A stretch of DNA of 32,576 nt, taken from Candidatus Uhrbacteria bacterium GW2011_GWC2_41_11. GTDB taxonomy: Bacteria > Patescibacteriota > Patescibacteriia > UBA9934 > GWF2-40-263. The notes beneath the pieces were generated by a model. The model was given only the letters and a program-made list of their open reading frames with translations. It searched no databases and was not told where the DNA came from. This document shows, piece after piece, positions 5,116 to 24,169 of this stretch. The stretch's first letter is position 1; the number at the start of each line of letters is the position of its first letter. The stretch lies in contig LCAH01000007.1 in assembly GCA_000996355.1 (NCBI GenBank), forward strand, positions 75,089 to 107,664, in the 5' to 3' direction. The position numbers were made by a program, and so were the translations under genes.

Positions 5116-5679
5116 ATGTCCGTTCGACTGTCACGCGAAAAACGTCATCCCATTCTCGTCTTTGTTGGGGTTCCTCATTTCCACATCATTGTGGATGGAG
5201 AGAATCCTTTCCTTATCACAAATTTGGAAACCGGAAGGCGGCTCCTTAGACGAATTGTCACAGATGGATCAGTCTCGGTCGATCAAGCCCAGGCCATCGA
5301 CGGGGAGATGATCCGTGAGGGTCTGGTTGAAAATCTTGAAAAGGTGTTCGAGATGCTGGCAAAATTTGGATCAGCACAAAAAAATGAACATCTTCCAATC
5401 ACGTTTGGCACTTCTGATCGAAGGGGCTACAGATACGGAATTCTCCGTATTGTTGGACTCCATAACGAGCGAGTCGACTTCTGCCCAATCATGACGAAGA
5501 TTGAATTTTTCAATGCTCTTTCAAAAGAAGTCACCAATGGGACCATCTCTGTACAAGACGGAGCAAGAGCATTCCAGATAGCCAAAGATCTTCCGCTCGA
5601 CAGCGAAGATTTTGAAAAGAAAACAGGAGAGAATTATGGACATATTCCCTACACAAATAGGGAAGTTCGTAACAGGTGA
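5116..5679 (+). CDS. Hypothetical protein (187 aa), coupled to the preceding ORF
   Basis: Its start lies 3 nt after the upstream stop. Composition is coding-like. No recognisable family motif. Confidence 0.55.
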   Translation: MSVRLSREKRHPILVFVGVPHFHIIVDGENPFLITNLETGRRLLRRIVTDGSVSVDQAQAIDGEMIREGLVENLEKVFEMLAKFGSAQKNEHLPITFGTSDRRGYRYGILRIVGLHNERVDFCPIMTKIEFFNALSKEVTNGTISVQDGARAFQIAKDLPLDSEDFEKKTGENYGHIPYTNREVRNR

Positions 5680-5689
5680 GCGAATTTAG

Positions 5690-5762
5690 GATCGAGTACC
5701 ATTCTGTGCTCGATTTTTTTATCACAAAATACAGACCAAAAAAATGATCTGTATTTTACATG
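5690..5762. terminator. Two hairpins separating the convergent unknown operon and the radical-SAM gene
   Basis: atcgag..ctcgat stem followed by a T-run of 7 (plus strand). A second 9-bp stem aaatacaga/tctgtattt is followed by a T-rich tract on the minus strand. Confidence 0.5.
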
Positions 5763-5766
5763 ATTC

Positions 5767-7464
5767 CTACACCAATTCCATTTGTGAATGTGGCGCAACC
5801 ACAGCGTCTCTAAAGGTTTGCTTCATCGCTGGATCAATATCGGATTCATCAATCTCCTTCATCATTTTTTCTGATGTCATAGCATAATGACCAAGCAAAA
5901 CTCTTGTATGTAAAGAGACTAATTTATCAGCTGTGACGGTTGGATCAGTAAGATATTGTTTGACAATACTATGTGACGAAGAAAAATATGCTTCTTGCAA
6001 TTCTTCTTTAGGAGTTTCAACCATTTTTCTTAATTGTTTTGGCCATACGGTCTGTTGATCCTCGGTTATTCTTCCTTCTGCGACAAAATCCTGAAGAAGA
6101 CGAATCGAAACATACAGACGAGTCGCATCTTCTTCAAAAAGAAGTCTTGCGTAAAAATCACGGAGTCCGGAACACACCGCCCGCTCGACTGCCTTAGGAT
6201 TAACCTCAGCAACAATCGCTTGAATTGCTTTTGTTCCTTTTTCGAGTTCTCCTAATGTCAAGACATCTGCCAAATTTTTTTCAATAATCTGTTTATAATC
6301 TTCTGTATATATAGAGGTCTCTACTTCCGGCGCTGATGCTCCCCAGATGGTTGAAGTCCCATCATAGAACGTCAAAAAGTCCAACCCATTTTCTTGCTCT
6401 CCATTAAAATGGACAGGCATATTTCCTTTTCTCCGCTCGTCAATGAAATCATCAAATGTTTGAACATTTTTTGCCACCTGCTTTCTATCATGCAAATTTG
6501 TAAGCGCTGAAGCATCAAAGAGCTGGGTGTATTCAATAGTAAAAGTCAGACCATTTTCCAGTTCAACCTCTTTTTTATGCATCATTCCTTGTCTTGTTTC
6601 TTTTGAGGATTTAACGGACAACTGCGCTAACAATCCATCCACGGTCGTATCACCTTCCATGGTATGAAAAAGTAATTTCATTCTTGAACCACTCATGCCA
6701 TTTTTGGAAAACCACTCAACAATATTTTTTACGTAATCAAAACTTCCGCTGTTTGAAAGACGAGAAAAATGACCTTCATCCAAACTTACTCGTACCGTTG
6801 TCGTGGAATGATGCGGATTTTCTTGTGTACTCTCACGGAGAGCATCTAATGTACGTTCTGCACCATTTTTCCCTTTTGCCCAATAGGCGCTTGTCACAAC
6901 AACAAAGTCCTTCACTTTTACACTACGGGCTAAACTATTAATTTTGTCTTTACTCATCAAAGGTTCCCCACCACCAGAAACAACCATTTTCAATATTTTT
7001 CCTTCTTTGGTAAATTGAATAATTTTTTCAATTCCTTCTGGAGTAATTTCTGTTTCCACCGTTCTTTTATCCTTGGTTGGTGATCGGAAAAAACAAAACT
7101 CACAACTCACAGGACAAACCTTATTCATCCACATGTAAAAAATACTTCCTCCTTCAAATCTTTCTTTTGGCTCAACAGAAATGGTTTCCAAAATCAAATT
7201 TCTCCATCTTTCAGATGCATCAAAACATTCCCGTGCGACTTCTATCCGTGATTTACCCTCTATTCTTTCAGCTTCCGGAAGCTTATTCCACGTCTCTAAT
7301 TCTCCGATACCATCTTTTTCTCTCCGTCTCTTTTTTCTTTCTCCCAGAGGATGTTGACCGAGTTCTATTGGCCACGGTGTTGTTGAAGTTGGTTTTTTTT
7401 CTGATATTTCCTCCCTTTCTTTATCCGATTCTATTGGTAAAAATTCTGTTGATCTCTCTTTCAT
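5767..7464 (-). CDS. Radical SAM enzyme (565 aa), with a ~110-aa charged N-terminal extension and a ~300-aa C-terminal extension
   Basis: CPVSCEFCFF (CxxxCxxC) at about residue 128 and glycine-rich VVSGGGEPL. There is no second cysteine cluster (no SPASM, no B12 motif). The start lies 17 nt downstream of the NTase gene stop. Confidence 0.8.
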   Translation of the reverse strand: MKERSTEFLPIESDKEREEISEKKPTSTTPWPIELGQHPLGERKKRRREKDGIGELETWNKLPEAERIEGKSRIEVARECFDASERWRNLILETISVEPKERFEGGSIFYMWMNKVCPVSCEFCFFRSPTKDKRTVETEITPEGIEKIIQFTKEGKILKMVVSGGGEPLMSKDKINSLARSVKVKDFVVVTSAYWAKGKNGAERTLDALRESTQENPHHSTTTVRVSLDEGHFSRLSNSGSFDYVKNIVEWFSKNGMSGSRMKLLFHTMEGDTTVDGLLAQLSVKSSKETRQGMMHKKEVELENGLTFTIEYTQLFDASALTNLHDRKQVAKNVQTFDDFIDERRKGNMPVHFNGEQENGLDFLTFYDGTSTIWGASAPEVETSIYTEDYKQIIEKNLADVLTLGELEKGTKAIQAIVAEVNPKAVERAVCSGLRDFYARLLFEEDATRLYVSIRLLQDFVAEGRITEDQQTVWPKQLRKMVETPKEELQEAYFSSSHSIVKQYLTDPTVTADKLVSLHTRVLLGHYAMTSEKMMKEIDESDIDPAMKQTFRDAVVAPHSQMELV

Positions 7465-7481
7465 ATAAATTTTGTTGAAAA

Positions 7482-8810
7482 TCAGTATTTAAAATCTTCC
7501 TCAAATTTTGCTTTAAATTTTTTATCTAACTTCGAAACTAAAAGATCTTTTTTAATTTCATCGGTAATATAAAAATTTTCACTTATGATTCGTAAAATAT
7601 ATTCTAATCCGGGTGTGTTGCTAAAACGTTTCACAATATAATGCAGTATTTCCGGAGAGGTTGAACGTACGGCAAATGGAACCAATTCATTCCAGCCCGG
7701 ATTTTTTAATGCATCCAAGACATCTTCATCAAGACTCGTCTTTGCTTTCGCCATCTCCCATAAATCAACGGATTCTTGATGACGGGAGGCAACATTCTTA
7801 TATAATTTTTCTACCAATTCATGAATGCTTGCCTTTGCATTGGCATACACATACATAAATTCATCCAAGGATTTTATTCCTTGTTTTTTTAATGTTCCTT
7901 CTATGACATGATAACAATGTTCTAGAGACGAGTCACTTAAATATAATAAATGTTCATCCTTTGTTTTTTCGTTTTCACGCCACAAAGTAATTTTTGTTAA
8001 TAAAATCAATTCTATGGCATTTTGTACCCGTTTTTGTTCTTCGGGTGAAACGACACCATCCTGCAGAAGAGTATCCAAACACACAAAAGCAGCCGGTTTT
8101 TCTTGTGATATACTCGCCTTTTCTTTTTCTATTGCTAAAAACCAATCTAAAAAAATAATATCTCGAGTCGCTCCAAAATCATATTTTAAATCTTGTCCGA
8201 ACTTCGTTTTTTTTGTTGGGTAATTATATTTATGAAATAGATTATATACCGTGATGAAACGTCTCTCCTTGTCCTGACGACTATCTTGTTTTTCAATCAA
8301 ATCTCTATGTTTTTCAGCAATATCATTATTTCCTACAATAAACCTCGCCTCTATAGCGTTCGTATACTCAATCATGTGGGGACAATTTTCTTTTTTTACA
8401 GCATCAAGTGAATGCCATTTCGCAATATCAACTTCAAAAGGCAAAGCACGAATTTTCTGCTTCAATTCTTCTTTAATATATACCGGACAATCATCCTTAA
8501 AAATCAAACCAATATCAATATCAGATCCTGGTAACATCAAATCTCTTGCCGGAGAACCAAAAATAAAGAGAGAGAAAGGAAGTTCTGAAGGGTCAATATG
8601 TAAACGTGTAGCAAATTCATCAGCTATGTGTTTCAGGGAATCTCGAACCAACGCACCCATCCTCTCCGCAGATTCAAGGACACTGATTTTACCCATAATG
8701 ACATCTTCACCCATTCCTTCGATGTTTTTTCTTGCTTGTTCAGTCGATTCTTTTTTCGGATCTTTCACTCCAAAAAATTCAAACTCTACAGATTTTGCTT
8801 TGTCTGACAT
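7482..8810 (-). CDS. Pol-beta-superfamily nucleotidyltransferase with a GlnD/GlnE-DUF294-like helical domain (442 aa)
   Basis: FGSPARDLMLPGSDIDIGLIF matches the minimal NTase G[SG]...D.D motif. A downstream helical region carries KYDFGATRDIIF, reminiscent of the GGxRDIEF motif of GlnE/GlnD/DUF294_C. Confidence 0.72.
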   Translation of the reverse strand: MSDKAKSVEFEFFGVKDPKKESTEQARKNIEGMGEDVIMGKISVLESAERMGALVRDSLKHIADEFATRLHIDPSELPFSLFIFGSPARDLMLPGSDIDIGLIFKDDCPVYIKEELKQKIRALPFEVDIAKWHSLDAVKKENCPHMIEYTNAIEARFIVGNNDIAEKHRDLIEKQDSRQDKERRFITVYNLFHKYNYPTKKTKFGQDLKYDFGATRDIIFLDWFLAIEKEKASISQEKPAAFVCLDTLLQDGVVSPEEQKRVQNAIELILLTKITLWRENEKTKDEHLLYLSDSSLEHCYHVIEGTLKKQGIKSLDEFMYVYANAKASIHELVEKLYKNVASRHQESVDLWEMAKAKTSLDEDVLDALKNPGWNELVPFAVRSTSPEILHYIVKRFSNTPGLEYILRIISENFYITDEIKKDLLVSKLDKKFKAKFEEDFKY

Positions 8811-8861
8811 AAATTTTTTTTAATGATAAACCTTCATAAATTTTATTACAAATTCAGGAAA

Positions 8862-8990: not shown

Positions 8991-9064
8991 ATGGCTCCGG
9001 GACTTGGATTCGAACCAAGATAAACAGATTCAGAGTCTGTTGTCCTGCCATTAGACGATCCCGG
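8991..9064 (-). tRNA. tRNA-Gln (anticodon CUG)
   Basis: I folded the minus-strand sequence TCCGGGATCGTCTAATGGCAGGACAACAGACTCTGAATCTGTTTATCTTGGTTCGAATCCAAGTCCCGGAGCCA by hand. It gives a 7-bp acceptor stem, a D arm, an anticodon loop CTCTGAA (U33, anticodon CUG, A37), a T arm with TTCGAAT loop, discriminator G and encoded CCA. Confidence 0.85.
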
Positions 9065-9074
9065 AATGCGTCGA

Positions 9075-9123: not shown

Positions 9124-9411
9124 TTATTGACTACAATGAATGCAGATTGGTTGAGATTTTGGAAGCCATCCTGGAGAAACAATACGCAGATTACCTTCAT
9201 AATAATTATTGATTTCGTGTTGTCTCATCCGTTCTTCTGCATCTTCTTGTGAAGAACAAATGGTAATTTCTTCAATTTCCGTGCCTGTTTCTAACACGAT
9301 AGTGAATGTACGATTTGGTAAATGGTCTTGCCCAATCATGATAAGAATTTCTTTTTTTGTTCCATCAATGGCGATGTAATATGTTTTTCTTCCATCTGTT
9401 TGGATAACCAT
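9124..9411 (-). CDS. Small hypothetical protein (95 aa), paralog B of a tandem pair
   Basis: RBS AAGGAGGaaatgtcATG. About 40% identical to the upstream ORF (shared KTY.I..DGT..EI.I.IGQDHL....F.IV.ET.TEIEE, C-terminal PGW). Confidence 0.6.
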   Translation of the reverse strand: MVIQTDGRKTYYIAIDGTKKEILIMIGQDHLPNRTFTIVLETGTEIEEITICSSQEDAEERMRQHEINNYYEGNLRIVSPGWLPKSQPICIHCSQ

Positions 9412-9441: not shown

Positions 9442-9732
9442 TTAGTCGTGGATAATAGCCGAAAATAGTGGTTGCCACCCAGGACGAATGATATAAACGA
9501 ACCACTTATCACCATAAAGTTCTTGAGCTTTTTGGCATTGTTGTTTCCAGTCTTCGAATGCGGATATTTGTGAAAGATAGATGCCCATCTCTTCAATTTC
9601 CGTGTCGGTTTCGGAGACAATGACGAATTCGTTTTTGGACAAATGATCTTGTCCAATTTTGATACAAATTTCGTCTCTTGTTCCATCCTGACCAATTTGA
9701 TACGTTTTTTTTCCGTCTTTTGAGATGATCAT
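9442..9732 (-). CDS. Small hypothetical protein (96 aa), paralog A of a tandem pair, translationally coupled to dus
   Basis: Its ATG overlaps the dus TGA stop (ATGA). GGAG lies 8 nt upstream. The ORF track extends to 9753; M at 9732 fits the coupling. Confidence 0.6.
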   Translation of the reverse strand: MIISKDGKKTYQIGQDGTRDEICIKIGQDHLSKNEFVIVSETDTEIEEMGIYLSQISAFEDWKQQCQKAQELYGDKWFVYIIRPGWQPLFSAIIHD

Positions 9733-10715
9733 GTTTTTTTCTCCTGGCTGCATGTAAAGGAGGTTTTCATCTCTTCAAGAATTTTTTCAAAGTTTTCCAT
9801 GGAGTCGACGGTGTGTAATTTTTGTCGAAAGTATGTTGCTCCAGGTAATCCTTTGAAATACCAAGTGAGGTGTTTGCGAAATGTTTTTATTCCATGTTCA
9901 CCATATTGTGCACAATGAAGGTTTAGATGCAAGCGAATGACTCGGATACGTTCTTCCATGGAAAGAGTGGTTAAAGGTTTTCCAGTAAGAAGATCTTCAA
10001 TCTGTTTAAAAATCCATGGATTGCCAAGAGCTCCTCTTCCAATAAGCACACCATCACAACCGGTGATTGTGAGAGCTTCTTGAACAAGAGAAGCAGAAGA
10101 AATATCTCCATTTGCAAGAACAGGAATGGAAACATGTTGTTTCACTTTTTGAATCATGTTCCAATCTGCTTTTCCTGTATACCCTTGCATTTTTGTTCTT
10201 CCGTGAACCGTGATGAGGTCTGCTCCAGCTTGTTCAAGTATTTTTGAAAAAGAAAGACAATCAGTTGGATCACTCCAACCAAGTCGAATTTTAACGGAAA
10301 TAGGAACAGAAACAGCTGCTTTCATTTTTTGAACAATGGTTGCAGCACGTTCCGGTTCGCGCATGAGTGCGGCTCCATTAAATCCGTGAACGATTTTATA
10401 GACAGGGCATCCCATGTTGATATCGAATCCATCTGGATGATCTTTCGTTTCAATGATGCGAGCCGCTTCAGCCATGACATCCGGATTGCTTCCAAATAAT
10501 TGTTGAATAAGCGGTCGTTCATCTGAATGAATAGTGGCCATGCGAATGGTTTTTTTATTTTCTCGAACCACTGCTTCAGAAGAGATCATTTCGCGAAATA
10601 CAAAAGGCGAGGCCATGGATTTAACGACACAACAAAAAGCAGAGTCTGTCATGTCTGCCATGGGCGAAAGTCCGATGATTGGTTTTGAGACAGTATTCCA
10701 ATTGAGTGTTTCCAT
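9729..10715 (-). CDS. dus: tRNA-dihydrouridine synthase
   Basis: Dus family motifs: LSPMADMTD, NMGCPV, GAALMREPE, and a TIM-barrel FMN site HGRTK. Confidence 0.9.
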   Translation of the reverse strand: METLNWNTVSKPIIGLSPMADMTDSAFCCVVKSMASPFVFREMISSEAVVRENKKTIRMATIHSDERPLIQQLFGSNPDVMAEAARIIETKDHPDGFDINMGCPVYKIVHGFNGAALMREPERAATIVQKMKAAVSVPISVKIRLGWSDPTDCLSFSKILEQAGADLITVHGRTKMQGYTGKADWNMIQKVKQHVSIPVLANGDISSASLVQEALTITGCDGVLIGRGALGNPWIFKQIEDLLTGKPLTTLSMEERIRVIRLHLNLHCAQYGEHGIKTFRKHLTWYFKGLPGATYFRQKLHTVDSMENFEKILEEMKTSFTCSQEKKT

Positions 10716-10788
10716 TTGGCGAAGATAGCAAAAAAAGAAAAAAGAGCCAAGCGAGTTGACTCAAGAATCACATTTCTGTGCGGCTAGG

Positions 10789-11190
10789 CTAGATCAAGGA
10801 CATGGAAAAACGGATAGGCTGTTCTGTCCTGGTAAGCGAGGAAATATCGATCCGTTCGGCATCGAGTTTCTCCGCCACCTGTTCGAGAATAGGATCCTCT
10901 TCTTCTGCAAACAAGATGACACGGACAATGCCGTGTTCGAGAAAATTCATCTCAAACTCGACCACTACATCTCCAGGAACCGATTTCCAGACGTATTTGT
11001 CTGTGTCTTTCGGATCCTGGTCAAGCCACGAACCCATAGCCGCGGCTTCTTTGATCGTGATGGCATCTTGATCCTTGACCGTATTCAGCTTGGACAAAAG
11101 GCGATCATCGACGATCATAGTGGTGGCAAAGATGGCTGCAAGAGAGACAGCCATGGATTCAGGTACAAAGAATTCTTTGTCCATCATCAA
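10789..11190 (-). CDS. Hypothetical acidic protein (133 aa), last gene of the znu transcription unit
   Basis: RBS GAGGAA lies 6 nt upstream. Its composition is far more protein-like than the overlapping plus-strand ORF 10756..11388, which is C/H/R/F-rich. Confidence 0.5.
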   Translation of the reverse strand: MMMDKEFFVPESMAVSLAAIFATTMIVDDRLLSKLNTVKDQDAITIKEAAAMGSWLDQDPKDTDKYVWKSVPGDVVVEFEMNFLEHGIVRVILFAEEEDPILEQVAEKLDAERIDISSLTRTEQPIRFSMSLI

Positions 11191-11300
11191 CGTTCCTCAT
11201 TTTGTTTGTTGTTTCCCGTCGAAATGGCAGGAAGGAGAGTTTTGACAAGATGCCGTATGTTTTGTTTTTCGTCAAGATGTTTATCACCTTTGTCCACCTT

Positions 11301-12107
11301 TTATTTTTTACGGAAAAAAATGGCAAGAAAAAAAAGAATCGTTCCAACAAGAATAACAGCCGCGCCAGAAGGGAGATCAAGAAAATAGGAACTGGTTAAT
11401 CCAACAAGAATAGCTGTTTCCGCGAGCAGAATCGAAACAAAAAAGAAACTTTTGAATGATCGTGTGAGAAGACGACTGGTTGCAGATGGAAGAATGAGAA
11501 GAGCAGAAACAAGAATGATACCAAGAATCTTTACGCCAAGGACTGTTGCCAGAGCGAGAGCGATGTAGAGAAGAAGAGATTGAAGGGTTGTATTGACTCC
11601 GTTGACAGAAGCTTGTTCTTCAGACAAAGACATGGAGGTCAGGGAGCGGAAAGAAATCGCAATCCAGGCGAGAATACCTGCTGTGACAAGAAAAATAACA
11701 AAGAGGTCTACGGTTTGAATAGAAAGAATACTTCCAAAGAGATAAGAAACAAGATCCGGCTGATATCCTTGTGTGAACCGCATGAGAATCACCCCCAATG
11801 CCATACTTGCAGTAAAGAGAATGCCAATGAGCGAATCAGAAGAAATACGAACTTTTCGTTCTAACCAAAAAATAAAAATTGCAATAAAAAGTGCCCAAGC
11901 AAGAGCAGTTGGAAGCGGAGCAATTCCGGCAAGAAGAGCAATAGCAATTCCGGCAAGTGAAGCGTGGGCAATCCCATCTCCAAAAAATGCCATGCGGCGC
12001 AATGTCACATAGACGCCAAGACACGCTAAAAGGAGACCGAGAATCATTCCAGCTAAAAATGCGCGCTGCATGAATGGAAAACTGATCATTTCAACAAAGA
12101 CGTTCAT
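11301..12107 (-). CDS. znuB: Zinc/manganese ABC transporter permease (ZnuB/TroC family)
   Basis: Eight TM segments and the FGDGIAHASLAGIA motif of ABC-3 permeases. The start overlaps the znuC stop (ATGA). Confidence 0.85.
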   Translation of the reverse strand: MNVFVEMISFPFMQRAFLAGMILGLLLACLGVYVTLRRMAFFGDGIAHASLAGIAIALLAGIAPLPTALAWALFIAIFIFWLERKVRISSDSLIGILFTASMALGVILMRFTQGYQPDLVSYLFGSILSIQTVDLFVIFLVTAGILAWIAISFRSLTSMSLSEEQASVNGVNTTLQSLLLYIALALATVLGVKILGIILVSALLILPSATSRLLTRSFKSFFFVSILLAETAILVGLTSSYFLDLPSGAAVILVGTILFFLAIFFRKK

Positions 12108-17866: not shown

Positions 17867-19906
17867 ATGCAAACCTGGAAACGCAAAAAGGCTGCACCGA
17901 CAAAAACAGCCAAACCGTGGAGAGCACCAGTTCTATCCGTTTTTTTTCTTTTATTAACCCTCGTCATGGCAGTCGCTGATTTTCCCTCGTTTTGGAACAA
18001 GGGGGTGACATCTGTTTCTGCAGCAACAGGTCAGAACATTTCTTGGCTCAAAGTTCCGGATATTGCGTTTCGTCTTGGATTGGATTTACAAGGAGGAGCA
18101 CATCTTGTGTATGAGGCAGACATGAGCCAAATTCCTTCAGAGGAGCGTGATGTTGCCTTAAAAGGAGTTCGTGACGTGGTAGAACGTCGTGTTAATGCAT
18201 TCGGTGTATCCGAACCTGTTGTTCAAACAACCATAACAGGGAATATCTATCGCATTATTGTTGAACTTGCCGGCATTCAGGATATTACGACCGCAATAAA
18301 TGAGATAGGAGAAACGCCTATCTTGGAATTCAAAGAAGAAAACACAGAAGTTGATCGTGCAGCAACGGTTGATGAACAGACTATTTTGGATCAAAAAAAT
18401 GCAGAGGCTAAATCAAAAGCAGATGAAATTCTTGCTCGTGCAAAAAAAGGAGAAGATTTTTCTGTGCTCATGAAGGAATTGAATGGTCAAGAATTGGGAG
18501 CAATTACGGTTGGACATCCGGCCTATGGTGTTTTAGCTCAAGCGGCTGCAAATGCAAAAGTTGCAAAGGGAAGTGTGCTTCCAACCGTTGTAGAAACAAG
18601 TAGTGGCTGGCATATTGTGCGTTTCTTGGAACAAGTTCAAACCAAACGCATGGAATTGTCCCATATTCTTATTTGTTTTGAAGGAAAAACAGGATGTCAA
18701 AATCCTGTGCCTGCGATTGATGCAAACACAACCATAACAAATTTAAAAAAAGATTTGACTCCTGAAAATTTTGCAGAAGTTGCTAAACAGAAATCAACAG
18801 ATCAAGGAACAGCATCCTCTGGAGGATATCTAGGATGGATTGAACCAGGGACAACGGTTCCTGTATTTGAACTTGCCGCGCTTGCACTTCCAGTGAATGG
18901 CATTTCAGAAGCAGTGGAAACAGAATTCGGATTTCACATCATTTATAAAAAAGCAGAAGAACCAGTGACGGCGTATCGTCTTTCGGATATTTTTGTTCCG
19001 CGGGTAAATTTGAATGAGATCGCACGTCCGGATGAATCATGGAAAAATACAACTCTTTCTGGAAAAAATTTGAAACGGGCCGGGGTTGAGTTTGATCCAA
19101 ACAGTGGTGCTCCTTATGTTTCTCTTCGTTTTGATGATGAAGGAGGAAAATTATTTGCAGACCTCACACAGCGAAATGTAGGAAAAGCCGTTGCTATTTT
19201 TTTGGATGGTCAACCGATTTCTGTTCCGGTTGTGAATGAAGCGATTTATGGTGGGGAAGCTATTATTACAGGTAAGTTTACCGTTCAAGAAGCAAAACTT
19301 CTTGCTCAACGTCTAAATGCGGGTGCTTTACCCGTTCCTATTCATCTTGTTTCTCAACAGACCGTTGGTCCTATTCTTGGAAAAATTTCTTTGGAACGAA
19401 GTATTCAGGCTGCGGTGTTTGGATTTATGCTTGTGTGTCTGTATATGATTTTGTTCTATCGGTTGCCTGGGGTTATGGCTGTCTGTGCTCTTATCCTTTA
19501 TACATTTCTTAACCTGGTGGCATATAAATTATTCGGTGTCACCATGACTTTGTCTGGAATTGCCGGATTCGTTCTTTCGCTTGGAATGGCTGTGGATGCA
19601 AACGTACTCATTTTTGAACGTCTCAAAGATGAACTTCATTCTGGTCATGATTTGCGATTTGCAACAGAGGAAGGATTTAAACGTGCATGGTCTGCTATTC
19701 GAGATGGAAATCTCACAACCTTGATTTCAGCTGCTGTTCTTTATGGATTCAGTTCCAGCTTTATCAAAGGATTCGCTCTCACCCTGACAATTGGTGTTCT
19801 CCTTAGCATGTTTACGGCGATTGTTGTGACGCGTGTTTTTATGGAAACGATTCAGAGAATTCCCTTCCTTCGCAGCCATATTTTTTATGGAGTTGAAAAG
19901 AAATGA
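17867..19906 (+). CDS. secD: Protein translocase subunit SecD with an inserted PpiC/parvulin-type PPIase domain in periplasmic domain P1
   Basis: SecD motifs LGLDLQGGAHLVYEADM and a C-terminal six-TM RND-like bundle. The insert is SHILI...GTASSGGYLGWIEPGTTVPVFELAALALPVNGISEAVETEFGFHIIYKK, a canonical parvulin signature, preceded by a second degenerate copy. Confidence 0.88.
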   Translation: MQTWKRKKAAPTKTAKPWRAPVLSVFFLLLTLVMAVADFPSFWNKGVTSVSAATGQNISWLKVPDIAFRLGLDLQGGAHLVYEADMSQIPSEERDVALKGVRDVVERRVNAFGVSEPVVQTTITGNIYRIIVELAGIQDITTAINEIGETPILEFKEENTEVDRAATVDEQTILDQKNAEAKSKADEILARAKKGEDFSVLMKELNGQELGAITVGHPAYGVLAQAAANAKVAKGSVLPTVVETSSGWHIVRFLEQVQTKRMELSHILICFEGKTGCQNPVPAIDANTTITNLKKDLTPENFAEVAKQKSTDQGTASSGGYLGWIEPGTTVPVFELAALALPVNGISEAVETEFGFHIIYKKAEEPVTAYRLSDIFVPRVNLNEIARPDESWKNTTLSGKNLKRAGVEFDPNSGAPYVSLRFDDEGGKLFADLTQRNVGKAVAIFLDGQPISVPVVNEAIYGGEAIITGKFTVQEAKLLAQRLNAGALPVPIHLVSQQTVGPILGKISLERSIQAAVFGFMLVCLYMILFYRLPGVMAVCALILYTFLNLVAYKLFGVTMTLSGIAGFVLSLGMAVDANVLIFERLKDELHSGHDLRFATEEGFKRAWSAIRDGNLTTLISAAVLYGFSSSFIKGFALTLTIGVLLSMFTAIVVTRVFMETIQRIPFLRSHIFYGVEKK

Positions 19907-19907
19907 T

Positions 19908-20804
19908 ATGACCTTGTCCATTGTTCGTCATCGAAAAATTTGGTACACGTTCGGCGGGGCGCTTGTGGTCGCAAGTTTGATAAGCACCATTGTCTTTGGA
20001 TTGAATTTTGGTATTGATTTTACAGGCGGAAGTTTATTGGAGGTGAAATTTTCGAAACCACCGGCTGTGGAAGATTTGCGCCAGCGTCTTGTTCAAATTG
20101 GTTATGATCACACCACGGTGCAACCGTCTGGAGATACGGAGTTTTTGCTCCGTTTTCGAGATCTGAATGAAACGGAACACCAGCAGATTCTCCAAACTCT
20201 CCGAGATGGATATGGTGACACACAGGAATTGCGTTTTGATTCCATTGGTCCTTCGGTTGGAAAAGATCTGCGTCAAAAAACATCTCTTGGTGTTGTCATC
20301 ACTCTTGTTCTTATTGGGGTATATGTTGCCATTGCTTTTCGTAAAGTTTCCGATCCGGTTCCTTCTTGGAAATATAGTTTTTTAACGGTTTTGGTCGCGT
20401 TTCATGATGTGATTGTTCCGATCGGAGTTTTTGCCTGTCTTGGAAAATTTTTCGGGTGGCAAATTGATACGTCTTTTGTTGCTGCGGTGCTTACTATTTT
20501 GGGGTATTCTATTAACGATACGATTGTTGTATTTGACCGAACGCGTGAAAATTTGCTTCGTTCAGAAGAGAAACCGTTTGAACAAGTTGTGGAAGAGAGT
20601 ATTCATCAGACACTTACTCGTTCGTTTAATACAGGATTAGCATCTTTGCTTACTCTTTTGGCTATTTCCATCTGGGGAGGAGATACCACAAGACCGTTTG
20701 CGGTTGCATTGATTCTTGGAATTGTTGTTGGAACGTACTCATCCATTTTTCTTGCAAGTCCATTACTTGTGACATGGGAAAAATGGGGAAAGAGACATTC
20801 ATAA
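19908..20804 (+). CDS. secF: Protein translocase subunit SecF
   Basis: GIDFTGGSLLEVKF motif and six TM segments. The ATG is 1 nt after the secD stop. Confidence 0.9.
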   Translation: MTLSIVRHRKIWYTFGGALVVASLISTIVFGLNFGIDFTGGSLLEVKFSKPPAVEDLRQRLVQIGYDHTTVQPSGDTEFLLRFRDLNETEHQQILQTLRDGYGDTQELRFDSIGPSVGKDLRQKTSLGVVITLVLIGVYVAIAFRKVSDPVPSWKYSFLTVLVAFHDVIVPIGVFACLGKFFGWQIDTSFVAAVLTILGYSINDTIVVFDRTRENLLRSEEKPFEQVVEESIHQTLTRSFNTGLASLLTLLAISIWGGDTTRPFAVALILGIVVGTYSSIFLASPLLVTWEKWGKRHS

Positions 20805-20851
20805 AAAGAGCGAAAAAAGCAGCTGTTAATTCGGCTGTTTTTTGTTTGATA

Positions 20852-20860
20852 TGTTATAAT
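20852..20860 (+). promoter_or_regulatory. Extended -10 promoter (TGtTATAAT); the downstream gene may be leaderless
   Basis: TGnTATAAT ends 9 nt before the ATG at 20870. There is no SD. Confidence 0.35.
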
Positions 20861-20869
20861 AAGTCCGAT

Positions 20870-22444
20870 ATGTTTTCTGTGTTTGCATCCACATTTGAAC
20901 CTTCGATGTTGGAAACATTTTTGGCGCAGCCTATTGACGTGGTCATGTACCAAATTCTTTTATATTTTGGATGGATTCCGATTGTTTCCGTCCTTATTTG
21001 GGGATTTGGGGAAGTGTATTTAACCTCAAAACAAGATGTATTTTCCAAAAATATAAAATATGTCCTTCTCGCGATTGATGTTCCCCGGATGACAGAACAG
21101 AGTCCAAAAGGAATGGAAAACATGTTTGCAACTCTGCATGGAGCTTTTTCAAATTTGACCTGGAGGGATAAATGGATGATTGGAAAAATTCAACCGCGGT
21201 TCAGTTTTGAAATTGTATCGATTGACGGATACATTCAGTTTTATGTGCGTACAGATATAAAATTTCGTGATGTGATTGAAGCCGGTATTTATGCCCAATA
21301 TCCGGATGCACAAATTTCAGAAGTCGAGGATTATGCATCCATTGTCCCTTCTTCCTTTCCAAATGAGGAGTGGAATATGTGGGGTTCGGAATTAGCATTA
21401 AAGAAATCGGATTATCTTCCCATTCGAACATGGGATTTGTTTGAACATAGTTTAAGTCAGGAACTCAAAGATCCGCTTGCGGTTATATTGGAACAATTGG
21501 GATGTATGAAACCGGGAGAATGTTTTTGGTTTCAAATGATCGTATGTGTGAGTGATCAAGATTGGAAAGAAGATGGGGTTAAATTCATTAAAAAAATTTA
21601 CGGTCTGAAGGAAGAAACAAAAAAATCAGGTTTAGAAAAAGGTTTAGAAAGTGCTTTGTCTATTCCAAGCGACGTTTTGGAACAAACCATTGGAGTGAGT
21701 TTGCTTGGCATGGCGGGAATGGGGGGAGCTGCTGCCGTAAAACCAAAAGATGAAGACATGTGGAAAGCGTTTAAAATTACCTTGCAAGAAAAGGCTCAAG
21801 TAGAGGGAGTCGCAAATAAAATTGCAAAAATTGGTTTTAAAACAAAAATTCGCATGTTGTATTTTGGAAGAAAGAATATCTACAACAAAGGGGCACGTAC
21901 AGCCATGGTCAAGGGTATGTTGCAACAGTATACGCATCAGGACTTAAACGGGTTTAGCATGTATGGTCCACAAACACCAAAAGATGATTATTTTTGGCAG
22001 CGCTGGTCTTATACAGATCGTCAGTCACGTTTAACACGAGCTTATAAGGGTCGCAGTTTTAGTACAGGAGGACCTCCACATATTTTAAATACACAGGAAC
22101 TTGCTACCCTTTTTCATTTTCCAAGCGTTGTGATTAAGGCACCTCTTGTGAAAAAGACAGAGTCTCGCCGTGCCGAGCCTCCGGTTGGCCTTCCGATTGC
22201 ATTCGAAGATACCATGCCATCAAAACCAGTTCCTGCATCAACAGTTCCTCTTGTTGATACAAGGTCTTCTGTCATACCTTTGAAGAAGAAATCGGTTGTT
22301 TCTGTTTCTGAACCAGAATTGCAGGTTCATATTCCGGATCCGATTCGTGTTCTTCTTGAACCTGGAGTGGAGTTAGAGGATGTTCCTATGCCAATGTTGC
22401 CAAGTTCCGAGAAAGATGAACCGCCGTCAAATTTGCCTGTGTAA
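20870..22444 (+). CDS. Membrane-anchored hypothetical protein (524 aa), partner of the downstream ATPase
   Basis: One N-terminal TM helix (VVMYQILLYFGWIPIVSVLIWGF), a large soluble domain and a Pro-rich tail. The ORF-track start 20774 overlaps secF, so M at 20870 is preferred. Confidence 0.55.
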   Translation: MFSVFASTFEPSMLETFLAQPIDVVMYQILLYFGWIPIVSVLIWGFGEVYLTSKQDVFSKNIKYVLLAIDVPRMTEQSPKGMENMFATLHGAFSNLTWRDKWMIGKIQPRFSFEIVSIDGYIQFYVRTDIKFRDVIEAGIYAQYPDAQISEVEDYASIVPSSFPNEEWNMWGSELALKKSDYLPIRTWDLFEHSLSQELKDPLAVILEQLGCMKPGECFWFQMIVCVSDQDWKEDGVKFIKKIYGLKEETKKSGLEKGLESALSIPSDVLEQTIGVSLLGMAGMGGAAAVKPKDEDMWKAFKITLQEKAQVEGVANKIAKIGFKTKIRMLYFGRKNIYNKGARTAMVKGMLQQYTHQDLNGFSMYGPQTPKDDYFWQRWSYTDRQSRLTRAYKGRSFSTGGPPHILNTQELATLFHFPSVVIKAPLVKKTESRRAEPPVGLPIAFEDTMPSKPVPASTVPLVDTRSSVIPLKKKSVVSVSEPELQVHIPDPIRVLLEPGVELEDVPMPMLPSSEKDEPPSNLPV

Positions 22445-22459
22445 CTTTAGTGTTTTGCT

Positions 22460-24169
22460 ATGTCTGTTTACCCGGATCACGATCATGAAAACGATGTTAT
22501 TTATTTTGCACGGACGAATTACCGCAATCAAATGCGGAAATTTGGCATTAAGACAGACGACCGCCGCCGTCATGTTTATGTGATCGGAAAAACAGGTATG
22601 GGCAAAAGTGTCCTTCTTGAAAACATGATTTTGGCTGATATTTATGCAGGTCATGGATGTGCTTATGTTGATCCACACGGAGACACCGCAGAAAAATTGA
22701 TTAACTACATTCCTGAATCTCGATTAAAAGATGTGGTGTATTTTAACCCAGCGGATGTCGAACATCCCATGGGTTTTAATATTCTTGAATCATCGGATCC
22801 GAATACACGTCATGTGATTGCCTCTGGGCTCATGGGAGTGTTTAAAAAGATTTGGCCAGATGTATGGAGTGCACGCATGGAACATATCTTGAATAACTGT
22901 CTTTTAACCCTTTTGGAAAATGAAGGCAGTACATTGCTTGGAATCAATCGGATTCTTGTTGATCGAGATTTTCGTGTCAAGATGGTTGCAAATGTGAAAG
23001 ATCCAGTTGTAAAAGCTTTTTGGATTACGGAATTTGAACAATGGGAACCAAAGTTTCGCACAGAGGCTATTGCACCCATTCAGAACAAAGTTGGACAGTT
23101 TCTTTCTACCAGTGTTGTGCGCAATATTGTGGCACAAACAAAATCCACGATTCGTCCTAGGCAATTCATGGATGAAAGTAAAATTTTTATTGTCAACCTT
23201 TCCAAGGGACGTATCGGGGAAGATGCGATGCGTTTACTCGGAGGAATGCTTATTACTAAAATGCAGCTTTCCGCCATGGAACGTGTGGATACTCCGGAAA
23301 TAGAACGCGCAGACTTTTATTTGTATATTGACGAGTTTCAAAATTTTGCAACGGAAAGTTTCGCATCCATCCTTTCCGAAGCTCGTAAATATCGGTTGGC
23401 TCTTATCATGGCACATCAGTATATTGAACAGCTGACGGAAGAAGTGCGTGATGCGGTGTTTGGCAACGTTGGAACGATTTTAACATTTCGTGTTGGTTCG
23501 CCGGATGCCTTATTTTTGGAAAATGAATTCATGCCTCGGTTTACGCACGAAGATTTAGTGAACTTGGCAAAATACGAAATTTATCTTCGACTCATGATTG
23601 ATGGAGTGGCATCTGAACCATTTTCCGCAAACACACTTCCTCCCATCGCGGTTCGCACAGATTCAACACAAACCGTTGTTGAATATTCCCGCAAAGAATT
23701 TTCGAAGACACGAAAAGAGGTGGAAGAAGGAGTTTTGAAATGGAGTGATATGGAAGAGGGGAAAACAGCACCTGAAGAAATTGAAAAAATTTTTGATCAG
23801 GCAGATGCGAAGCGCAAAGCCATGAAGAAATTCGGCGGAAAACCTGTCTTTGAGTATACGTGCAGTCGGTGCGGAAAAGACATGGTTCTTCCGGTTGAAC
23901 TGGATCGTTCGCGTCCTATTTATTGTGAGGATTGTATTGAAATCGTTCGTGAAGAACGTAAACAACAAGGGGAAAAGAAAGAACCGGAAAAAAAGGAAAT
24001 CATTAAAGTGACTCCCTCTTCGCCGCCTCCACTTAGATCTATGAAACCGCAATTACGGGGTTCCATTGTCGTAAAACCATCCGAAAAAGAAATCGGACTC
24101 TCTGCATTACGTAAAGATGTTTCAAAACCAAACACATCTTCGTCACCTGTAGAACAGAAAAAAGTATGA
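22460..24169 (+). CDS. HerA/FtsK/TraD-superfamily (DUF87/AAA-like) P-loop ATPase with a C-terminal ClpX-type zinc ribbon
   Basis: Walker A VIGKTGMGKS, Walker B LYIDEFQNF, and RKYRLALIMAHQYIEQL typical of TraD/VirD4/HerA-like ATPases. The C-terminus is YTCSRCGKDMVLPVELDRSRPIYCEDCIEIV. Confidence 0.78.
   Translation: MSVYPDHDHENDVIYFARTNYRNQMRKFGIKTDDRRRHVYVIGKTGMGKSVLLENMILADIYAGHGCAYVDPHGDTAEKLINYIPESRLKDVVYFNPADVEHPMGFNILESSDPNTRHVIASGLMGVFKKIWPDVWSARMEHILNNCLLTLLENEGSTLLGINRILVDRDFRVKMVANVKDPVVKAFWITEFEQWEPKFRTEAIAPIQNKVGQFLSTSVVRNIVAQTKSTIRPRQFMDESKIFIVNLSKGRIGEDAMRLLGGMLITKMQLSAMERVDTPEIERADFYLYIDEFQNFATESFASILSEARKYRLALIMAHQYIEQLTEEVRDAVFGNVGTILTFRVGSPDALFLENEFMPRFTHEDLVNLAKYEIYLRLMIDGVASEPFSANTLPPIAVRTDSTQTVVEYSRKEFSKTRKEVEEGVLKWSDMEEGKTAPEEIEKIFDQADAKRKAMKKFGGKPVFEYTCSRCGKDMVLPVELDRSRPIYCEDCIEIVREERKQQGEKKEPEKKEIIKVTPSSPPPLRSMKPQLRGSIVVKPSEKEIGLSALRKDVSKPNTSSSPVEQKKV

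Follow-up and report, generated by a model that had tools for sequence, protein, structure and literature searches.

The operon and its two products

The Patescibacteria, or candidate phyla radiation (CPR), bacterium Candidatus Uhrbacteria bacterium GW2011_GWC2_41_11 possesses two adjacent genes on the minus strand that encode a nucleotidyltransferase, designated as NTase, and a radical S-adenosylmethionine (SAM) protein, designated as rSAM. They lie in a 32,576-nt stretch of contig LCAH01000007.1, which we analyzed over its full length and refer to as the window. A sequence-only reading of this stretch had described the genes as a two-gene operon with a 17-nt spacer and suggested a nucleotide-modifying, nucleotidylation or signalling module. 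We confirmed both open reading frames (ORFs) and the spacer, and all four motifs quoted in that reading (GSPARDLMLPGSDIDIGLIF and FGATRDIIF in NTase, CPVSCEFC and GGGEP in rSAM) were found in the translations (Table 1). Neither NTase nor rSAM belongs to a curated family. The nucleotide-processing fusion partners and neighbors of distant rSAM relatives point to a nucleotide-modifying module that has not been described.

NTase is identical to a protein of Candidatus Uhrbacteria bacterium GW2011_GWF2_41_16, another member of the CPR. Its Pfam matches to NTP_transf_2/Polbeta (31.4 and 30.5 bits) exceeded the cut-off, and a match to DUF294 (PF03445) was borderline (21.7 bits; cut-off, 21) and confined to aa 51–114; DUF294_C (PF10335) and the CBS and cNMP-binding domains that usually precede DUF294 were not found by Pfam. 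The best NCBIfam matches were GlnD models, at 34–41 bits against cut-offs of 519–890. The homologs collected with a word-indexed tool, the only one used for this family, form 11 clusters that are 40–49% identical to the window protein in alignment, and the true size of the family may exceed this number. In these 11 homologs, G85, D97 and D99 of the catalytic motif are invariant and D128 is nearly so. K209, Y210, D211, G213, D217, I218 and F220 of the KYDFGATRDIIF motif are likewise invariant (pattern KYDFGxxRDIxF), and we take this motif to be the counterpart of K-x-G-x-G-G-x-R-D-I-E-F of GlnE, GlnD and DUF294. The C-terminal helical region is conserved and family-specific (VPFA...SPEIL...GYEYILRIISEN). 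Structure comparison revealed a fold of the GlnE/GlnD/DrrA type, which resembles both the adenylyl-removing and the adenylylating domains of GlnE as well as DrrA. NTase thus possesses the features of a GlnE/DrrA-fold AMPylase, namely a Pol-beta core, intact G-S/D-x-D/D carboxylates and a GlnE-type helical domain, and its earlier description as GlnD/GlnE-like holds for both the fold and the K-x-D-F-G-x-x-R-D-I motif. An MNT antitoxin of the HEPN-MNT type, i.e., a minimal NTase of ~100–140 aa with an adjacent HEPN toxin, was considered and rejected (NCBIfam NF047752, cut-off 60 bits).

rSAM matched Pfam Radical_SAM (PF04055, 47.1 bits against a cut-off of 29.5) and Fer4_12 at aa 110–265 only, which covers just the cluster-binding half of the barrel. 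Its CX3CX2C and GGE motifs and a predicted barrel (AlphaFold2, AF2) matching many rSAM structures place it in the radical SAM superfamily. C117, C121, C124 and SGGGEP are invariant in all 37 aligned family members. The only other cysteines, C80 and C431, are unconserved, and the three cluster ligands are the only invariant cysteines among 19 close and 37 broad homologs. Pfam detected no SPASM, B12-binding (PF02310) or RRE (RiPP recognition element)/leader-binding domain, and conserved extra cysteines for an auxiliary cluster are lacking. A SPASM/twitch identity was rejected by Pfam and the cysteine pattern, and a B12-dependent one by the missing cobalamin-binding match; the ~300-aa C-terminal part is therefore as described from the sequence, with neither signature. 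The long charged N-terminal extension noted in the same description is also present: the first 100 residues include 21 K/R and 23 D/E, and aa 1–61 are predicted to be disordered (AF2 predicted local distance difference test, pLDDT, <50). The TPWPIE motif in this extension is specific to the clade nearest to the window protein (the near clade), where it is present also at loci without NTase, and is absent from the distant forms of ~500 aa.

The alignment further revealed an RxSxDxxH motif, and numerous arginines are conserved towards the C-terminus; the helical C-domain conserves R435-D436-F437, E444-E445, R449, Y451, R455 and Q458. No structural match to this domain was found: alignments of the whole protein cover ~270 residues, and the matches listed are rSAM or TIM-barrel enzymes. 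A profile of 19 homologs found no sequence match in the PDB. The structure nearest to the barrel is the peptide epimerase EpeE, followed by MoaA, BlsE and viperin. NCBIfam scores were far below the cut-offs for PapB (33.9 vs 340 bits), YydG (28 vs 300), viperin (27.7 vs 180) and MoaA (23.9 vs 325.25), and rSAM fits no curated family. HemN/HemW, a housekeeping identity raised in the sequence-only reading, gave neither a family match nor close structural similarity.

The promoter candidate upstream of NTase, found by a consensus scan alone, lies downstream of both terminator-like hairpins that trail the tRNA-Gln gene. The hairpin at the opposite end has a minimum free energy of −30.1 kcal/mol, compared with −16.3 ± 2.8 for shuffled sequences (z = −4.86), and probably closes the operon as a terminator. 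Given their own promoter-like site and terminator hairpin, the two genes form a self-contained operon. The hairpin could be bidirectional and common to the convergent ORF at 5116–5679 (plus strand, 187 aa), which has neither a Pfam match nor a meaningful PDB match. The GC content at third codon positions (GC3) of this ORF, 0.43, is the highest of 20 measured window genes (0.24–0.39 for the others), so that its coding status is uncertain.

Table 1. Coordinates of the operon, its sequence motifs and adjacent signals in the window
Feature	Position	Strand	Remarks
Gene 1, NTase	7482–8810	−	442 aa; ORF listing and translation
Pol-beta NTase catalytic motif G85-S86...D97-I-D99, GSPARDLMLPGSDIDIGLIF (aa 85–104)	8499–8558	−	Translation and homolog alignment
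Third carboxylate of NTase, D128	8427–8429	−	
KYDFGATRDIIF motif of NTase (aa 209–220)	8151–8186	−	Includes FGATRDIIF (aa 212–220)
NTase–rSAM spacer	7465–7481	−	17 nt; obvious Shine-Dalgarno sequence not seen
Gene 2, rSAM	5767–7464	−	565 aa; ORF listing and translation
TPWPIE motif (aa 29–34)	7363–7380	−	Inside disordered charged N-terminal extension; invariant
CX3CX2C [4Fe-4S] motif CPVSCEFC (aa 117–124; C117, C121, C124)	7093–7116	−	
GGGEP, SAM-binding GGE motif (aa 164–168)	6961–6975	−	
All-helical, arginine-rich, family-specific C-domain (aa 390–556)	5797–6297	−	AF2 helices with pLDDT 84–97
Sigma-70-like promoter candidate TTGTAA-17-TATCAT	8823–8851	−	12 nt 5' of NTase ATG; 9/12 matches
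Probable terminator hairpin	5726–5757	−	13 bp, U-rich 3' arm; directly 3' of rSAM stop codon
tRNA-Gln(CUG)	8992–9065	−	Directly upstream of operon
Promoter-like site of tRNA-Gln	9105–9076	−	Own site of the tRNA gene
Two terminator-like hairpins after tRNA-Gln	8966–8952 and 8885–8870	−	

Conservation of the pair and the wider radical-SAM family

We compiled 15 distinct near-clade rSAM loci from the gene tables of homolog contigs, a scan of GTDB species representatives, and tblastn and HMM searches over fetched loci. NTase adjoins rSAM in nine of them. It precedes rSAM on the same strand in the window and L074 (gaps of 17 and 29 nt), follows it on the same strand in L006/L013, L008, L009, L012 and L073 (11–28 nt), and is convergent with it in L010 and L014 (2–16 nt). 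The other six (L001, L003, L005, L007, L015 and L016) have no NTase within the 6–10 kb of flank from which solo status was judged. One NTase locus, L011, has no rSAM within 8 kb; there, an Exo_endo_phos gene and then a NUDIX gene follow. An NTase HMM run over the fetched loci matched only at near-clade loci, and hhalign revealed no hidden NTase homologs when applied to the unassigned ORFs in L017 and L001. Pairwise identities grouped both proteins in the same way, with L006, L008 and L009 together, L010 and L014 together, and the window alone; L012 joins the first group both by NTase identity and by clustering of rSAM at 75% identity. These matching groupings indicate that the two genes have been inherited together.

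CPR genomes are gene-dense and both NTase and rSAM are found at loci that lack the other, as would be expected if two unrelated genes had merely come to be neighbors in a compact genome. This explanation is effectively excluded, however, by adjacency in nine loci whose proteins are 43–76% identical, by the 2–29 nt spacing kept across three orientations, by the matching divergence of both proteins and by the position of nine of the ten NTase genes beside rSAM. The coupling is clearly not due to chance, yet it is facultative. The tight coupling claimed from the sequence therefore stands as regards the nine loci, their three arrangements and the matching groupings, but not for the six solo rSAM genes and the one solo NTase. 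Taken together, rSAM is not a HemN/HemW protein, NTase is not an ordinary GlnD, and the pair is co-conserved, so that the objections which the sequence-only reading had raised against itself do not apply.

The near clade is very patchily distributed, with 20 clusters in 5.8 billion proteins and six loci among 185,579 GTDB species representatives, which points to a probable accessory or conflict-related role outside core metabolism. When the ORFs around near-clade loci were clustered in search of a third conserved gene or a precursor peptide, the only candidate to emerge was a gene of ~105 aa, which is absent from the window. This conserved protein (~105–113 aa), convergent and just downstream of rSAM or the pair, is encoded at 9688–10005 of L007, 7053–7394 of L008 and 11056–11373 of L009 (all on the minus strand) and has no Pfam family in the precomputed gene tables. 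In L016, an AAA_33/zeta-like P-loop kinase gene follows rSAM. In L001, one of the loci without NTase, the segment immediately downstream of rSAM (9792–12062) encodes a HAD-type hydrolase followed by a Fic-domain protein. Fic is the other known AMPylase fold, and in this single case the Fic protein could be a non-homologous replacement of NTase.

An rSAM profile was run exhaustively with HMMER against 1.84 billion representative proteins and yielded 442 relatives, of which 243 are at E ≤ 1e-10 and 120 representative clusters at E ≤ 1e-30. Most are ~500 aa long and lack the N-terminal extension, and the match spans the barrel through the helical C-domain. A word-indexed protein search with a broad rSAM alignment returned only proteins already known. 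Fusions were found to a DUF386/YhcH cupin (P0037, P0038 and P0040, the first of which keeps TPWPIE), PHP (P0046, and an ORF of L023), SIR2_2 (P0077), His_Phos_1 with DUF218 and a methyltransferase (P0054, 3259 aa), a methyltransferase (P0101) and a separate B12-rSAM (P0058, a distant relative). The barrel and helical C-domain are also embedded in the giant multidomain proteins P0053 (6629 aa, with the rSAM module at residues 3769–4267), P0146 (5327 aa), P0054 and P0047 (2920 aa), of which P0054 and P0047 were analyzed by Pfam.

A metagenome scan with a narrower rSAM alignment gave 54 loci, ~29 of them non-redundant. Here, genes directly adjacent to rSAM encode CYTH proteins (L017 and L019), an adenosine deaminase or amidohydrolase (L019, L036 and L046), a dCTP-deaminase-like protein (L044 and L065), NUDIX or NUDIX-HD proteins (L043, L045 and L058), His_Phos_1 (L055), HAD (L058), a methyltransferase (L062), a second rSAM-SPASM protein (L051) and a Pkinase-NB-ARC-TPR STAND protein (L020). 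One NDK, one TLC ATP/ADP transporter and two RpiB genes, as well as genes for leucine-rich repeat (LRR) proteins and recombinases, also occur among the neighbors. A 523-aa family member is encoded on 12 contigs (L030, L031, L033, L035, L037–L040, L042, L052, L059 and L064), most of which carry a convergent aldo/keto reductase gene and a small gene of 130–150 aa. At least L038 is labelled as human gut metagenome, and these loci indicate that the rSAM family is not confined to CPR bacteria.

A distant operon recurs in L024, L025, L028 (8907–17384) and L029, and L026 and L057 show its first genes after rSAM. As represented by L028, it consists of genes for a 353-aa protein, rSAM, a 199-aa protein, a 272-aa protein, a paralog of the first protein, Exo_endo_phos and an ABC-2 exporter. 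The ~200-aa protein encoded right after rSAM in all six loci contains an invariant Pol-beta NTase-like motif, TGSYALDLMTWNDIDMQ, and has no Pfam or PDB match. The 353-aa protein has invariant DPCHR and ESGHY motifs, and its family accompanies rSAM in 12 loci; it has no Pfam match, and profile searches found no meaningful PDB match for it or for the 272-aa protein. Exo_endo_phos was rejected as a recurrent partner because the genes of L011, L073 and the L028-type operon are not close homologs of one another; by eye, that of L073 resembles ordinary exonuclease III.

The exporter at the end of this operon is reminiscent of bacteriocin clusters, and would suit a pair that modifies peptides or proteins, in which rSAM epimerizes, cross-links or otherwise modifies a substrate encoded elsewhere, with NTase adding a nucleotidyl group to this substrate or to one related to it. 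PapB and YydG, very weak as they are, are the best NCBIfam matches of rSAM, and enzymes with the fold of NTase act on proteins. On the other hand, the auxiliary [4Fe-4S] cluster and conserved hydrogen-donor cysteine of EpeE (PMC13012085) are missing, as are RRE/leader-binding and SPASM domains (Pfam). The loci likewise show no conserved precursor-like small ORF, the ~105-aa gene of L007, L008 and L009 being absent from the window, and the partners of the family are nucleotide enzymes rather than peptidases or precursors. We therefore regard peptide or protein modification as an improbable function of the pair.

Proposed substrate class and roles of the two enzymes

The partner repertoire of the family, in which enzymes acting on nucleotide phosphates, bases or ribose predominate, together with the nucleotide-acting rSAMs among its structural relatives, makes a nucleotide or nucleoside the likeliest substrate class. 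Our preferred reading, to which we assign a probability of about 0.4, is that the operon encodes a nucleotide-modifying rSAM with NTase as its nucleotidyl-transfer partner. The operon structure, the linkage of the pair and the family context speak for it, as do the Exo_endo_phos and NUDIX genes that follow the solo NTase of L011. From the comparative data we infer the course of the reaction as follows. With its single cluster, rSAM would generate a 5'-deoxyadenosyl radical that abstracts hydrogen from the ribose or base of a nucleotide or nucleoside to give a modified nucleotide, while the arginine-rich helical C-domain and R225 and H232 of the barrel may hold the phosphates. NTase would attack the alpha-phosphate of a nucleoside triphosphate (NTP), either an ordinary one or the rSAM product, and join the nucleoside monophosphate to a target hydroxyl. 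As with GlnE, GlnD and DrrA, this hydroxyl most likely belongs to the side chain of a protein. The place of NTase would be filled, in more remote branches of the rSAM family, by CYTH, NUDIX/HD, PHP, histidine phosphatase, deaminase or kinase partners.

Several observations weigh against this reading. The nearest rSAM structure is a peptide epimerase and not a nucleotide enzyme, and no substrate-binding residues were identified. The nucleotide-processing partners come mostly from relatives that are 23–32% identical to the window rSAM, so that the substrate may differ between clades, and the flanking genes of the near clade itself are mostly ordinary. The six rSAM loci without a nearby NTase exclude a strict need of rSAM for NTase. 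Moreover, the solo rSAM of L007 is 82% identical to the paired one of L009. L007 keeps the small downstream gene of L009, while the NTase between is gone and an insertion sequence element lies nearby; L007 thus appears to have lost NTase from between the same flanking genes, which indicates that NTase can be lost or moved. The NTase-like protein of the L028-type operon suggests a second, independent NTase–rSAM association, which would speak for the reading, but it does so at the level of a motif only: hhalign paired the TGSYALDLMTWNDIDMQ segment with the catalytic G-S...D-x-D of the window NTase, with an E value of 0.005 and a probability of 6.8%. The only reactions known for GlnE/DrrA-fold enzymes use standard ATP or UTP and modify tyrosines of proteins, and use of a modified NTP by NTase is speculation; nothing was found that identifies the NTase target. 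The nearest structure, the low identity of the informative relatives and this last point are the reasons why we go no higher than 0.4. The nucleotide module of the sequence-only reading is supported in part by the partners of the family, whereas the structural proximity to EpeE does not favor it and its function is drawn from comparative data only.

The facultative pairing would also suit an optional regulator, i.e., an NTase that reversibly adenylylates or uridylylates rSAM as an on/off switch, much as GlnE acts on glutamine synthetase, with the radical chemistry being independent of NTase. The fold of NTase matches both domains of GlnE as well as DrrA, all of which modify protein tyrosines, rSAM has invariant tyrosines (Y110, Y244, Y367, Y386, Y390 and Y451), and NTase and rSAM fall into matching groups by identity. 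However, a specificity-determining position test found no rSAM residue that separates NTase-linked from solo proteins, and the NTase of L011 lies beside Exo_endo_phos and NUDIX genes with no rSAM nearby. The possible second, unrelated NTase beside distant rSAMs fits a shared pathway better, and to our knowledge the genes of GlnE and GlnD are not normally adjacent to those of their targets. Covalent control of rSAM is accordingly a doubtful explanation, though one that we would place above peptide modification.

A more specific proposal, in which rSAM makes a non-canonical (dehydrated or rearranged) NTP and NTase attaches the modified nucleotide to a bacterial or host-cell protein, seems to us quite unlikely, even more so than peptide modification. 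This CPR bacterium is an episymbiont that attaches to a host cell. If a modified nucleotide does go onto a protein, the product would represent a novel type of post-translational modification, and radical chemistry would have a new use in inter-organism conflict or regulation. More broadly, the rSAM family, with at least 120 clusters at E ≤ 1e-30 and some members inside proteins of 3,000–6,600 aa, would then constitute a second nucleotide-modifying lineage, independent of viperin.

Radical enzymes known to remodel nucleotides form a small set, comprising viperin, MoaA, QueE, BlsE and OxsB. If our preferred reading is correct, this set would be extended by a new rSAM family for which neither Pfam nor NCBIfam has a model and which has no sequence-detectable relative of solved structure, that spans CPR to human-gut and apparently host-associated bacteria, and whose CYTH, NUDIX/HD, PHP, deaminase, kinase, SIR2 and NTase partners point to nucleotide chemistry. 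GlnE/DrrA-type AMPylases would gain a context beyond nitrogen regulation and Legionella effectors, as well as a compact two-protein system for finding the target of an AMPylase. CPR bacteria have small genomes full of unassigned genes and depend on scavenged nucleotides; for them, the operon would represent a testable accessory nucleotide pathway.

Genomic surroundings and relation to known systems

The genes flanking the operon are of the housekeeping type and encode an ABC exporter, BipA, Dus, ZnuABC, Fur, pyrophosphatase, SecDF, BacA and MnmA. GC3 of the pair (0.26–0.30) is slightly low compared with most other genes listed (0.29–0.37). An island inserted at tRNA-Gln is unsupported, in that the tRNA gene has its own promoter and terminators and the GC3 of the pair overlaps that of the housekeeping genes for SecD (0.287) and pyrophosphatase (0.289). 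No evidence was found that the tRNA gene marks an integration site, although integrase or repeat evidence was not sought beyond GC3 and the tRNA signals. A tblastn search against phages and plasmids and scans of IMG/VR returned nothing relevant, and a phage, plasmid or viral origin of the pair was rejected.

These results bear on a possible role in anti-phage defense or inter-organism conflict, in which rSAM would make a viperin-like toxic or chain-terminating nucleotide analog and NTase would act as a sensor or effector; such a role is compatible with the nucleotide-centered reading. It is consistent with the very patchy distribution of the near clade and the frequent turnover of partners, with the SIR2_2 fusion P0077, the STAND neighbor in L020 and the nearby LRR proteins and recombinases, and with a restriction-modification/helicase cluster beside the pair in L009. 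In addition, dCTP and adenosine deaminases serve known defense systems, and PADLOC gave weak pVip matches. However, the window operon lies among housekeeping genes (BipA, Dus, ZnuABC and SecDF), its GC3 is merely slightly low, homologs in phages, plasmids and IMG/VR are absent, and none of the PADLOC scores approaches significance for a known system. We consider this role about as doubtful as covalent regulation. The link to anti-phage systems drawn in the sequence-only reading found no support in the window, which shows no mark of a defense island.

The remainder of the window has some features of its own. Upstream of tRNA-Gln, the tandem ORFs at 9124–9411 and 9442–9753 (both minus strand; 95 and 103 aa) look paralogous by eye, each starting with M-x-I-x-x-D-G-x-K-T-Y followed by IGQDHL and TEIEE; Pfam recognizes neither of them, and other loci do not keep them beside the pair. 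In SecD (17867–19906, plus strand), aa 154–361, between the N-terminal P1 segment and the P1 head, are occupied by peptidyl-prolyl isomerase (rotamase) domains of the PPIC type, so that a translocon subunit seems to be fused, unusually, to a foldase. At 20774–24169 (plus strand), the region that separates secF from bacA contains a 556-aa ORF without a Pfam match, followed by a gene for a TraG/VirD4/HerA-like coupling ATPase that carries a treble-clef zinc finger; the genes around the two are of the housekeeping type. The segment 31001–32000 has a GC content of 0.507, compared with ~0.41 elsewhere, and contains only overlapping ORFs of 106–169 aa; no Rfam family was found in it.

No paper on the NTase–rSAM pairing or on the partner set of the rSAM family was found in the literature searched, in agreement with the sequence-only reading, which did not recognize the pairing as one already described. 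As for NTase, GlnE has two tandem NTase domains in ~950 aa, whereas NTase has a single domain in 442 aa and an unrelated conserved helical tail. It has no Pfam GlnE match, and the PDB profile match to GlnE (3k7d) is insignificant (E = 0.12). NTase is therefore GlnE-like in architecture, with strong fold similarity, but is not GlnE. DrrA/SidM is a secreted Legionella effector that AMPylates a tyrosine of Rab1 and carries guanine nucleotide exchange factor (GEF) and P4M domains; the sequence identity to NTase is 12%, and a secretion signal or effector context was not seen for the window protein. GlnD, the uridylyltransferase of PII (850–900 aa), combines NTase, HD and two ACT domains. It gave the best NCBIfam match, over the N-terminal NTase region (aa 78–340), but NTase lacks HD and ACT domains (Pfam), and its scores of 40.6 vs 890 bits and, for TIGR01693, 33.9 vs 519 bits ruled out a GlnD identity. 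Furthermore, Pfam found no PII, GlnB or GlnA domain among 20 neighboring ORFs, and the Tyr-loop signature of PII was not found in the six frames of the window, which bears out the earlier remark that glnB, glnA and PII genes are absent nearby.

EpeE uses Cys223 as hydrogen donor and has a T-SPASM/twitch domain that holds an auxiliary cluster (PMC13012085). The rSAM family shares the scaffold of EpeE/YydG, lacks this cluster and the Cys223 donor, and adds an N-terminal extension of ~100 aa and a helical C-domain of ~170 aa. The absence of the cluster and Cys223 means that rSAM is not an EpeE-type epimerase; the YydG score (TIGR04078, 28 vs 300 bits) and the lack of a precursor-like ORF in the operon gave the same result.

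The next-best structures after EpeE include nucleotide-acting enzymes, and in this respect rSAM resembles pVips, MoaA and BlsE, which are single-substrate rSAMs linked to nucleotide-processing partners. It differs from viperin in being twice the size, in having a different C-terminal domain and in its partner, a GlnE-type NTase instead of a kinase, though the frequent pairing of pVips with nucleotide kinases is echoed by the P-loop kinase that follows rSAM in L016. A viperin/pVip identity was rejected: NF038283 scored 27.7 vs 180 bits at aa 113–189 only, and the PADLOC pVip match (23.6 bits) is limited to aa 110–189 of a 565-aa protein, compared with ~280–300 aa for viperin. PADLOC 2.0 identified no known anti-phage system, the weak partial matches being PDC-S09 (21.1 bits) and pVip.

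In oxetanocin biosynthesis, the cobalamin-dependent rSAM OxsB and the HD-domain phosphohydrolase OxsA act on deoxyadenosine phosphates. The window rSAM lacks a B12 domain, and its operon encodes no HD protein. The wider family, with its HD, NUDIX, PHP and B12-rSAM partners, follows the same logic of an rSAM combined with a nucleotide phosphohydrolase. The combination of an rSAM with a nucleotide-processing partner, as we propose for the window operon, therefore has precedents in the pVip–kinase and OxsB–OxsA pairs.

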